From assembly GCF_003334765.1 (NCBI RefSeq), contig NZ_QOWT01000031.1: DNA of 47,728 nucleotides. One strand, given 5' to 3'. The translations under genes and the position numbers were made by a program. Positions 5,518 to 8,092 of this stretch are shown here, one piece after another (position 1 is the stretch's first letter; the number at the start of each line of letters is the position of its first letter). The DNA is from Escherichia coli (GTDB lineage: Bacteria > Pseudomonadota > Gammaproteobacteria > Enterobacterales > Enterobacteriaceae). The notes beneath the pieces were generated by a model. It did no database searches and was not told the DNA's origin. It saw only the letters and a program-made list of their open reading frames with translations.

Positions 5518-5880
5518 ATGGCTAGCGAACGCAGTACTGATGTGCAGGCATTTATCGGGGAGCTGGACGGCGGCGTATTTGAAACCAAAATCGGCGCAGT
5601 TCTCAGTGAGGTCGCTTCCGGTGTGATGAACACGAAAACCAAAGGGAAGGTCTCACTCAATCTGGAAATCGAACCGTTTGATGAGAACCGTGTGAAAATC
5701 AAACACAAACTCTCATATGTTCGCCCAACTAACCGCGGGAAAATTTCCGAAGAAGACACCACCGAAACGCCGATGTATGTCAATCGCGGTGGTCGCCTGA
5801 CTATTCTGCAGGAAGACCAGGGACAATTACTGACTCTTGCCGGTGAACCTGACGGAAAACTCCGCGCAGCAGGTCGTTAA
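5518..5880 (+). CDS. yfdP: YfdP-like prophage protein (120 aa)
   Basis: ORF with AGGAG Shine-Dalgarno 8 nt upstream of ATG at 5518; recalled similarity and matching length to K-12 CPS-53 YfdP. Confidence 0.55.
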   Translation: MASERSTDVQAFIGELDGGVFETKIGAVLSEVASGVMNTKTKGKVSLNLEIEPFDENRVKIKHKLSYVRPTNRGKISEEDTTETPMYVNRGGRLTILQEDQGQLLTLAGEPDGKLRAAGR

Positions 5881-5945
5881 TATCGTTCGTAATAAACTGA
5901 TTATTTATCTCATCACTGAATATCTTTATATAGTGAGGACTTATT

Positions 5946-6770
5946 ATGTCTCAGAACTTAGACGCAACCGCAATTAATCAAATCCATGCCCTTATTTCTG
6001 CTCAGGGTGTTAATGAAATTATCAGTAAGATTGGTGCCGATGCTGTGGCATTGCCTGAGAATTTCCGCATTCATGATCTGGAAAAATTTAATTTAAATCG
6101 CTTCCGTTTCCGTGGTGCACTTTCCACTGCCAGCATCGATGATTTTACCCGTTATTCTAAAGATCTTGCAGATGAAGGCACCCGCTGCTTTATCGATGCC
6201 GATAATATGCGTGCCGTCAGTGTGCTTAACCTGGGTACTATTGATGAGCCAGGTCACGCAGATAACACTGCCACTCTCAAACTGAAAAAGACAGCACCGT
6301 TCTCTGCTCTGTTGTCTGTTAACGGCGAGCGTAACTCCCAGAAGTCACTGGCAGAATGGATCGAAGACTGGGCCGACTACCTTGTGGGCTTTGATGCTAA
6401 TGGTGACGCTATTCAGGCAACAAAAGCGGCTGCGGCAGTCCGTAAAATCACGATTGAAGCAAACCAGACCGCTGATTTTGAAGATAATGACTTCAGCGGC
6501 AAACGCTCCCTGATGGAGTCTGTCGAAGCGAAGACCAAAGACATTATGCCAGTGGCATTTGAATTTAAATGCGTTCCGTTTGAAGGTCTGAAAGAACGTC
6601 CGTTTAAATTACGCCTCAGCATTATCACTGGCGATCGTCCTGTACTGGTTCTGCGCATTATTCAGCTGGAAGCGGTGCAGGAAGAAATGGCTAACGAATT
6701 TCGTGATCTGCTTGTTGAGAAATTCAAAGACAGCAAAGTAGAAACCTTTATTGGTACTTTCACCGCCTGA
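5946..6770 (+). CDS. yfdQ: YfdQ-like prophage protein (DUF2303 family, 274 aa)
   Basis: ORF length and sequence recalled as matching CPS-53 YfdQ. Confidence 0.65.
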
Positions 6771-6897
6771 TTTCATTACTGCAAATGCCCCTGCGGGGGC
6801 ATTTATGGAAACGTAATTAACTCAATAATCACCGGATGGTGAGGGCTTCCTTTTACCAGAATTCAGCGCGGTGCAGTGCATATACGTGGAGAACAAA

Positions 6898-7434
6898 ATG
6901 TCATTTATTAAAACTTTTTCCGGGAAGCATTTTTATTATGACAAGATAAATAAAGACGACATCGATATTAACGATATCGCGGTTTCCCTTTCAAATATCT
7001 GTCGCTTTGCCGGTCATCTTTCGCACTTCTACAGCGTCGCCCAACATGCGGTTCTTTGCAGCCAGCTGGTGCCGCAGGAATTTGCTTTTGAAGCGTTAAT
7101 GCATGATGCAACAGAAGCGTATTGCCAGGACATTCCCGCACCACTGAAACGCCTTCTTCCTGACTATAAACGGATGGAAGAAAAAATAGACGCCGTAATC
7201 CGTGAGAAATACGGGTTACCCCCAGTTATGAGTACACCCGTGAAATATGCCGATCTCATCATGCTGGCAACCGAACGCCGCGATCTCGGGCTTGATGATG
7301 GCTCTTTCTGGCCTGTACTGGAAGGCATCCCGGCAACAGAGATGTTCAACGTGATTCCACTGGCACCGGGTCATGCCTACGGGATGTTTATGGAACGTTT
7401 TAACGAGTTATCGGAGTTACGCAAATGCGCATGA
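6898..7434 (+). CDS. yfdR: YfdR-like HD-domain phosphohydrolase (5'-deoxynucleotidase-like)
   Basis: His...HD metal-binding motif (HLSHFYSVAQH, LMHDATEAY); GGAGA Shine-Dalgarno before ATG at 6898; 178 aa. Confidence 0.7.
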   Translation: MSFIKTFSGKHFYYDKINKDDIDINDIAVSLSNICRFAGHLSHFYSVAQHAVLCSQLVPQEFAFEALMHDATEAYCQDIPAPLKRLLPDYKRMEEKIDAVIREKYGLPPVMSTPVKYADLIMLATERRDLGLDDGSFWPVLEGIPATEMFNVIPLAPGHAYGMFMERFNELSELRKCA

Positions 7435-7787
7435 ATGTTTTCGAAATGGAAGGGTTTCTTCGCGGGAAATGTGTACCGCGAGATCTGAAAGTGAATGAAA
7501 CAAATGCTGAGTACCTGTTACGTAAATTCGACGCGCTTGAAGCTAAATGTGCGGCACTGGAAAACAAAATAATACCAGTGTCAGCTGAACTGCCACCAGC
7601 AAATGAAAGTGTTCTGTTATTTGATGCTAATGGAGAAGGCTGGCTGATTGGCTGGCGTTCTCTCTGGTACACCTGGGGACAAAAAGAAACCGGAGAATGG
7701 CAGTGGACATTTCAGGTCGGGGACCTTGAAAACTTCAATATCACTCACTGGGCAGTAATGCCAAAAGCACCGGAGGCTGGAGCATAA
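7425..7787 (+). CDS. yfdS: YfdS-like prophage protein (DUF551-type, 120 aa)
   Basis: ORF overlapping the yfdR-like stop by 10 nt; length matches K-12 YfdS. Confidence 0.55.
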   Translation: MRMNVFEMEGFLRGKCVPRDLKVNETNAEYLLRKFDALEAKCAALENKIIPVSAELPPANESVLLFDANGEGWLIGWRSLWYTWGQKETGEWQWTFQVGDLENFNITHWAVMPKAPEAGA

Positions 7788-8092
7788 TGACCACATTTAC
7801 CAATAAAGAACTGATTAAAGAAATCAAAGAACGAATCAGCAGCCTAGAGGTTCGAGACGATATTGAGCGCCGTGCTTATGAAATCGCACTCGTATCTCTG
7901 GAAGTAGAGCCAGATGAACGCGAAGCCTATGAATTATTCATGGAAAAGCGTTTCGGTGACTTAGTAGATCGTCGGAGAGTAAAAAACGGCGATAACGAAT
8001 ACATGGCATGGGATATGACTCTCGGTTGGATCGTCTGGCAGCAACGAGCTGGTATCCATTTTTCAACAATGACACAGCAAGAGGTGAAATAA
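7787..8092 (+). CDS. yfdT: YfdT-like prophage protein (101 aa)
   Basis: ORF; its stop overlaps the xis ATG (TAATG). Confidence 0.5.
   Translation: MTTFTNKELIKEIKERISSLEVRDDIERRAYEIALVSLEVEPDEREAYELFMEKRFGDLVDRRRVKNGDNEYMAWDMTLGWIVWQQRAGIHFSTMTQQEVK

Follow-up and report, generated by a model that had tools for sequence, protein, structure and literature searches.

The five genes yfdP, yfdQ, yfdR, yfdS and yfdT occupy positions 5518 to 8092 of a 47,728-nucleotide stretch of Escherichia coli DNA (contig NZ_QOWT01000031.1; the whole stretch is referred to as the window), where they form part of a prophage remnant. We read them as an accessory module of a CI-repressed early-left operon whose best-supported activity is takeover of the host at the initiation of replication, through an interaction of YfdR with DnaA, and we give this reading an even chance of being right. 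The block comprises five co-directional open reading frames (ORFs) on the plus strand that fill this interval, exactly as delimited in a preliminary description made from the sequence alone. The gene names given there also hold: the products are 97-99% identical to K-12 YfdP (98.3%, 118/120), YfdQ (99.3%, 272/274), YfdR (98.9%, 176/178), YfdS (98.3%, 118/120) and YfdT (97.0%, 98/101), values that signify real orthology rather than chance.

The same description held that none of these genes has an established role, which published work on K-12 contradicts. There, yfdQRST was isolated as a multicopy suppressor of hda-185 over-initiation (Noguchi & Katayama 2016, PMC4776307). The minimal set that inhibits oriC initiation in multicopy consists of yfdQ and yfdR together with yfdS or yfdT, with yfdP being dispensable, and it is also effective in wild type, dnaAcos, seqA, DARS and diaA backgrounds (PMC4776307). 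K-12 YfdR binds domain I of DnaA at Phe46, the site of DiaA and DnaB, and oriC replication in vitro was blocked by extracts oversupplied with YfdQRST, for which the authors proposed an ancestral phage role analogous to that of lambda P (PMC4776307). The YfdR of the window differs from this DnaA-binding protein at 2 of 178 residues. A role in host takeover, as the preliminary description had suggested, agrees with these K-12 data on replication initiation; the same literature also goes part of the way towards assigning the genes to replication, an outcome that the description had set against its own proposal (PMC4776307).

We infer that replication inhibition is the natural lytic-phase function of the genes and that it holds for the window copy. 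The cassette would be transcribed, together with xis and int, only upon loss of the repressor, through either induction or infection. YfdR would then occupy DnaA domain I at Phe46, where DiaA and DnaB otherwise bind, and with the help of YfdQ and of one of YfdS and YfdT it would block initiation at oriC. The phosphatase activity of YfdR may additionally drain deoxyribonucleoside 5' monophosphates (dNMPs). In binding the initiator and lowering initiation, YfdR resembles DiaA, the SirA protein of Bacillus subtilis and lambda P, although the sequences are unrelated. According to the K-12 data, YfdR competes with DiaA and DnaB at DnaA Phe46 but is insufficient by itself in vivo, where it requires YfdQ plus YfdS or YfdT.

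Several observations weigh against this reading. Replication was affected only when the genes were on multicopy plasmids, deletion of yfdQRST gave no initiation phenotype, binding of YfdQ, YfdS or YfdT to YfdR or DnaA was not detectable, and the authors themselves allowed for an overexpression artefact (PMC4776307). In the searchable literature, none of the five genes is credited with a phenotype during infection or induction. Furthermore, there are Vibrio, Xanthomonas and Stx2a-type phages that carry yfdP and yfdQ with no HD gene alongside, and the pair must therefore serve some purpose that does not depend on YfdR and DnaA.

YfdR itself matches PHROG 318, 'deoxyribonucleoside 5' monophosphate phosphatase', across residues 1-178 (E 1.5e-110), as well as the Pfam families YfbR-like (E 5e-5) and HD_3. 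Alignment to a solved HD protein (PDB 2gz4, E 3e-14) shows identical positions for the H...HD...D motif, which lies in the query segments VAQH, MHD and YAD, the HD pair being H69 and D70 by our reading. It is thus an HD-domain phosphohydrolase by family and motif, as had been described. It scores well below the equivalog cut-off for YfbR (NCBIfam NF003009; 19.9 vs 122 bits), the sole match that NCBIfam returned for the cassette, although RefSeq nevertheless names the gene product '5'-deoxynucleotidase'. From these matches we classify YfdR as a relative of YfbR and a member of the phage dNMP phosphatase family, rather than as an equivalog. We take the Dmp-type HD 5'-deoxynucleotidase of phage T5 to be alike in HD fold and motif. 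E. coli YfbR shares this fold and motif too, with YfdR adding the DnaA-binding activity. Direct characterization of K-12 YfdR found a weak 5'-deoxynucleotidase as well as a DnaA domain I binder (PMC4776307), and the protein is reported to be structurally homologous to YfbR while having a much lower affinity for nucleotides (Zimmerman 2008, cited in PMC4776307).

Promoter, operators and gene layout of the early-left operon

The putative PL promoter lies beyond the intact cI gene and its terminator and is overlaid by two copies of a TGTACC-N5-GGTACA-type palindrome (Table 1). Three further copies of this palindrome lie at 3558-3625, in the cI-cro spacer, and the five copies are likely the OR (cI-cro spacer) and OL (over PL) operators of this immunity type. 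The genome of phage PhiR49_1, whose positions 1-6799 match window positions 2698-9496 at 99.96% identity, is annotated with no plus-strand genes from the PL promoter and cI to yfdP. With an operator-covered promoter at 4357-4400, the cassette would form the first genes of the CI-repressed early-left operon, ahead of xis and int, a position that fits a lytic-phase role in host takeover. The preliminary description had seen meaning in the place next to xis and int; adjacency to these genes is borne out, and this place is simply that of an accessory part of a lambdoid early-left operon.

Table 1. Features of the prophage immunity region and early-left operon, in window coordinates.
Feature	Position	Strand	Remarks
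cI	3643-4317	+	LexA/CI-type repressor; PHROG 4; intact gene
cI terminator	4329-4348		
Putative PL promoter	4357-4384	+	TTGACA-16-CATAAT; 11/12 matches in promoter scan
Putative operator copies over PL	4362-4380, 4382-4400		TGTACC-N5-GGTACA-type palindrome
yfdP	5518-5880	+	120 aa; upstream partner of yfdQ
yfdQ	5946-6770	+	274 aa; DUF2303
Hairpin in yfdQ-yfdR spacer	6783-6804	+	9-bp GC-rich stem, 4-nt loop
yfdR	6898-7434	+	178 aa; HD-domain; upstream GTG at 6871 is a possible start
yfdS	7425-7787	+	120 aa; Ea22/EaE-type N-terminal segment and DUF551 C-terminal domain
yfdT	7787-8092	+	101 aa; mosaic protein
xis	8092-8463	+	P22-type excisionase, 123 aa; PHROG 2907, E 1e-45, 116/117 profile positions
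int	8319-9482	+	Tyrosine integrase, last gene of the operon; PHROGs 10426 and 1
tRNA-Arg(tct)	9498-9574	-	ARAGORN and Rfam; adjoins int

Each ATG is preceded by a purine-rich stretch that we read by eye as a ribosome-binding site. The genes had been called mostly overlapping, which is true of yfdR/yfdS (10 nt), yfdS/yfdT (1 nt) and yfdT/xis (1 nt, with the yfdT stop and xis start joined as TAATG) but not of yfdP and yfdQ, separated by 65 nt, or of yfdQ and yfdR, separated by 127 nt. The hairpin in the latter gap may be a partial terminator or an RNA-stability element: folding of positions 6771-6815 gave -17.3 kcal/mol (z -3.25), and 0 of 200 shuffles were equally stable. Its location agrees with the listing of a 'yfdPQ' transcription unit in K-12 (PMC9181523). 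An Rfam scan of the whole window found nothing within or near the cassette. At the other end of the operon, the xis ORF is full length and overlaps int, named intD in the RefSeq annotation of the matching genome, by 145 nt. At the place of xis in the near-identical sequence NZ_CP121087, RefSeq has only a 66-nt 'incomplete' helix-turn-helix pseudogene.

At the DNA level the window and the K-12 prophage CPS-53 (KpLE1) share a single colinear blastn block (window 5499-8145, 2647 nt, 97.8% identity) that begins 19 nt upstream of the yfdP ATG and stops about 50 nt inside xis. The five genes are common to both, with order and spacing alike, whereas their flanks differ. In CPS-53 these comprise a yfdO remnant upstream and, on the other side, the truncated xis remnant ypdJ with TorI/IntS at argW; in the window they comprise cI-PL and a minus-strand gene upstream and an intact P22-type xis/int at argU. 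Hence the integration module that accompanies the block varies: it is argW/IntS-TorI in K-12 and argU/P22-type Int-Xis in the window.

Two further features lie between PL and yfdP. The minus-strand gene, at 4532-5047, is antisense to the operon and encodes a 171-aa protein of PHROG 1244 whose N-terminus is predicted to be a coiled coil and whose C-terminus carries CxxC...CxxC; the gene possesses a terminator of its own (4474-4493) and is a candidate lysogen-expressed 'moron', for which PADLOC gave no meaningful match. The segment 5192-5503, immediately upstream of yfdP and part of what had been described as a structured leader, is annotated by RefSeq as a frameshifted hypothetical-protein pseudogene.

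Occurrence in E. coli genomes and complete phages

The prophage of the window sits at tRNA-Arg(tct), beside a FimZ-type regulator and sfm fimbrial genes, and has no replication, lysis, head or tail genes. Near 2698-2702, within 1414-2754, a deletion has fused the opening codons of ymfM to a 'prophage tail fiber N-terminal domain' gene; the matches on either side of the junction overlap by about 5 nt. This junction was found in 0 of 5426 complete E. coli genomes. The block itself is far more widespread. A megablast search with window 5300-8500 as the query found matching DNA in 3639 of these 5426 genomes, with at least 80% query coverage in 1563 and matches at up to 7 places in some of them, and in 139 phage records. 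Identity reaches 99.9% in PhiR49_1, whose record names E. coli ECOR13 as the host, 95.8% in SfV and SfIV, and 96-98% over 81% of the query in Stx2c-converting phages, cdtI and 2H10. PhiR49_1, SfV and SfIV (orf28-32 in the latter two) have the same architecture as the window, cI-PL-yfdP..T-xis-int, at 95.8-99.9% DNA identity. Unlike the window copy, which stands in a remnant without replication, lysis and virion genes, these are complete phage genomes. The preliminary description had spoken of conservation in otherwise decayed prophages. This is accurate for the window, a deletion remnant, and two copies do lie in remnants, those of the window and of K-12 CPS-53; with near-identical copies in complete phage genomes, however, the block is not peculiar to decayed prophages.

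The ratio of nonsynonymous to synonymous substitution (dN/dS) over the five genes is 0.09 against K-12 and 0.12 against SfV. Values of about 0.1 indicate purifying selection and bear out the selected function that had been suggested, although such low values may be due in large part to the genes' recent descent from active phages.

The YfdP-YfdQ pair within a mosaic

The five genes are not one conserved unit, as they had been presented, but a mosaic of three: the YfdP-YfdQ pair, the HD gene and two Ea22-type genes. A tblastn search of 50,697 phage records found YfdQ in 184 and YfdP in 180, with near-identical taxon breakdowns (YfdQ/YfdP: Escherichia 53/52, Vibrio 32/27, Stx2a 26/26, Stx2c 15/15, Xanthomonas 15/15, Salmonella 6/6, Pseudomonas 5/5). 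In 9 of 9 loci inspected from diverse phages, the gene directly upstream of yfdQ is a yfdP homolog; these loci are those of ST64B, ArgO145, Stx2a_WGPS2, the Vibrio phages VvAW1, D93 and 1.232.O, Pseudomonas pAN, Xanthomonas CP2 and Acinetobacter fJoAci04, which together span Escherichia, Salmonella, Vibrio, Pseudomonas, Xanthomonas and Acinetobacter. One metagenomic contig has the same adjacency. The genes for YfdP and YfdQ are therefore strictly coupled, as a pair found widely among phages.

The HD gene is distributed independently of this pair. YfdR-like HD proteins occur in 333 records, including those of Bacillus, Caulobacter and Rhizobium phages and of several phages above 150 kb, and the HD gene directly follows yfdQ only in enterobacterial lambdoids. 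The gene after yfdQ is not an HD gene in ArgO145, VvAW1, CP2, D93 or fJoAci04, and in Pseudomonas pAN a PHROG 318 gene is found three genes further on. In lambdoid phages of the 'no Rec module' class, ST64B, LLS and phiNP, the order yfdP-yfdQ-HD stands directly after cI/PL, as in the window (PMC12315714). This trio of phages lacks exo/bet/gam; their proteins are 57-68% identical to those of the window, and DUF262, Ea22-like and exoribonuclease genes follow in place of yfdS and yfdT.

The last two genes encode Ea22-type mosaic proteins. YfdS matches PHROG 583 (E 1e-81), with residues 1-49 also matching PHROGs 614 and 14548, residues 46-118 matching PHROGs 6925 and 924, and a weak C-terminal match to Pfam DUF551 (E 3.5e-4). 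YfdT matches PHROG 660 and is full length in only 13 of 196 phage records, the majority having residues 1-42 alone in common; this segment is 79-93% identical to the N-termini of Ea22/EaA-annotated genes and of HK022 and Stx-phage genes. Homology to the Stx2c-converting, cdtI and 2H10 phages stops at position 7911, inside yfdT at about codon 42, a boundary that fits recombination at an Ea22/EaA-type N-terminal module common to both sides. YfdS and YfdT show no significant similarity to each other, though they are functionally redundant in the K-12 assay, and PDB sequence searches returned nothing for either.

Of the two paired proteins, YfdQ is the better defined. It matches Pfam PF10065 over profile positions 2-269 of 269 (E 2.2e-92) and PHROG 210 (E 3e-120), and its family contains 1467 clusters at 50% identity, with all of the 150 listed being single-domain proteins of about 270 aa. 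Residues P102, H104, E140, D141 and W142 hardly vary across the family. YfdP matches PHROG 204 (E 1e-49), and its homologs carry a precomputed PF27127 assignment, while a Pfam profile search with the window YfdP gave zero matches. AlphaFold2 models were obtained with a predicted local distance difference test (pLDDT) score of 91.3 for YfdQ and 84.9 for YfdP, the latter with one helix and three long strands. The YfdQ model has no whole-fold match in the PDB libraries searched and the YfdP model no informative fold match; a PDB sequence search with YfdP, either as a single sequence or as a profile, found nothing.

For YfdQ, the PDB does hold an entry titled 'YfdQ Protein' (9o7m), which has 36 chains of one 274-aa sequence and matches the window YfdQ at E 1e-44. 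That sequence shares 98.8% identity with YfdQ from Xanthomonas phage MET23-P3 (CP2 group). The entry is suggestive, though not proof, of self-assembly of YfdQ into a very large homo-oligomer. We considered whether 9o7m might be a virion map and rejected this idea: the major capsid protein of MET23-P3 retrieved only distant capsids from the PDB, and with this capsid protein absent, 9o7m is not a virion reconstruction. A literature search found no paper describing the structure. In several Xanthomonas and Vibrio phage records (MET23-P3, 27837-29091; SAC, Alcala, FGH), YfdP homologs are annotated as 'translation elongation factor', a name unsupported by sequence or fold searches.

In non-enteric phages the pair stands among early DNA-metabolism genes (Erf or RecT, exonuclease, SSB, helicase), and it is carried by MET23-P3, which has no annotated integrase or repressor. 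Matches to YfdQ were found in only 23 of 72,556 plasmid records, many of those multi-megabase; a place for YfdQ in the leading regions of conjugative plasmids was considered and rejected, given that the protein is essentially absent from plasmids. It is possible, if somewhat doubtful, that YfdP and YfdQ are a self-contained and ancient two-protein early module of Proteobacteria phages, in which YfdQ would form a roughly megadalton homo-oligomer and whose function would be unrelated to YfdR and DnaA, the pair acting as a new phage effector directed at DNA transactions of the host or the phage, or at immunity. If so, the enterobacterial five-gene cassette would be merely one local packaging of it.

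Alternative functions and significance

A related proposal is that YfdP-YfdQ, perhaps with the HD enzyme, are an unrecognised accessory of replication, repair or recombination at the place of lambda's Rec module (exo/bet/gam), with a large YfdQ oligomer, for which the 36-chain entry is again suggestive, acting on or around DNA or replication proteins. The cassette fills the entire stretch between PL and xis-int. The whole-genome annotation of PhiR49_1 contains no exo, bet, gam, erf or recT, thus no annotated Exo, single-strand annealing protein (SSAP) or Gam, and only RusA; in this phage type the cassette takes the place of lambda's Rec module. PhiR49_1 also has 8 Chi octamers, 6 of them in one orientation and clustered at 6.4-11.5 kb, where about 1 per strand is expected from base composition, and in being Chi-rich without these annotated functions it recalls the 'no Rec module, Chi-rich' LLS class (PMC12315714). 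Elsewhere, as noted above, the pair is found beside Erf, RecT, exonuclease, SSB or helicase genes. Yet ArgO145 has both the pair and complete Rec modules, and in CP2 and MET23-P3 the pair is accompanied by Erf, exonuclease and SSB. A 2025 survey of lambdoid Rec modules by Casjens/Smith and colleagues found the yfdP-yfdQ-HD trio to be common in early-left operons and, since it occurs both with and without a Rec module, considered a recombinase role, that is, hidden recombinases, unlikely (PMC12315714). The cassette proteins resemble none of the Rec-module protein types (Exo/RecE, Bet/RecT/Erf/Sak, Gam/Abc2, SSB) by sequence or fold, and no similarity to any SSAP, nuclease, Gam or SSB was seen. 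We think this proposal unlikely.

Retention of the genes for the benefit of the lysogen, as stress-tolerance functions domesticated from a prophage, would explain why two decayed prophages (window and CPS-53) still carry them in intact form and under purifying selection. Deletion of CPS-53 and single deletions of yfdS and yfdQ have been reported to cause sensitivity to hydrogen peroxide, with the yfdQ deletion also reported to be sensitive to methyl methanesulfonate (MMS) (PMC4776307), and the host regulator SrsR binds upstream of yfdP in K-12 (PMC9181523). But the SrsR-bound K-12 region is not common to the window, where homology starts only at 5499, and the operon of the window, with its operator-covered promoter beside an intact cI, is expected to be off in the lysogen. 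The same genes are found in complete phage genomes and in phages without annotated integrase or repressor, and recent descent from active phages may by itself explain the low dN/dS. We judge such a benefit distinctly improbable.

The preliminary description had also raised anti-defence activity and degradation of signal nucleotides by the HD enzyme, neither of which gained supporting evidence. An anti-defence module of this sort would have the HD enzyme destroy immune signalling nucleotides or counter nucleotide-based defences, with an acidic YfdQ oligomer serving as a sponge or DNA mimic. The genes resemble many anti-defence loci in their early, accessory and mosaic character; the five proteins are all acidic (pI 4.9-5.9), YfdQ is essentially phage-restricted, and its 36-chain entry would suit a sponge. 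Against this, no cassette protein is similar to any defence-related family, with zero matches to PADLOC models at E<=0.01 for all five, and YfdR belongs to the phage dNMP phosphatase family, with activity on dNMPs reported (PMC4776307). Our literature search found no paper linking the yfdP-yfdT genes to defence systems. We therefore hold this to be very unlikely, and inhibition of replication initiation through YfdR and DnaA remains our preferred account of the cassette.

The block is already known, in that these are well-known early genes of lambda-like E. coli phages that have been named, annotated in RefSeq and partly characterised. What the present analysis adds to the published papers that we examined is the strict coupling of YfdP and YfdQ in phages whose hosts span six bacterial genera, the HD gene's independence of this pair, and an explicit OL/PL assignment. 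The unit to study is accordingly the YfdP-YfdQ pair rather than the five genes. About two-thirds of complete E. coli genomes and many Shiga-toxin-converting phages carry the block; with such wide occurrence a clear function would annotate thousands of genes, and it could bear on prophage induction and Stx production. PhiR49_1, with the cassette at 99.9% identity and ECOR13 as a named host, looks tractable for knock-outs, and a solved YfdQ assembly is available in 9o7m.

Elsewhere in the window, on the minus strand of its chromosomal part, Rfam matches to the small RNAs STnc480 (87.6 bits) and ES036/CssrF (38.1 bits, just over threshold) lie side by side at 31059-31193.

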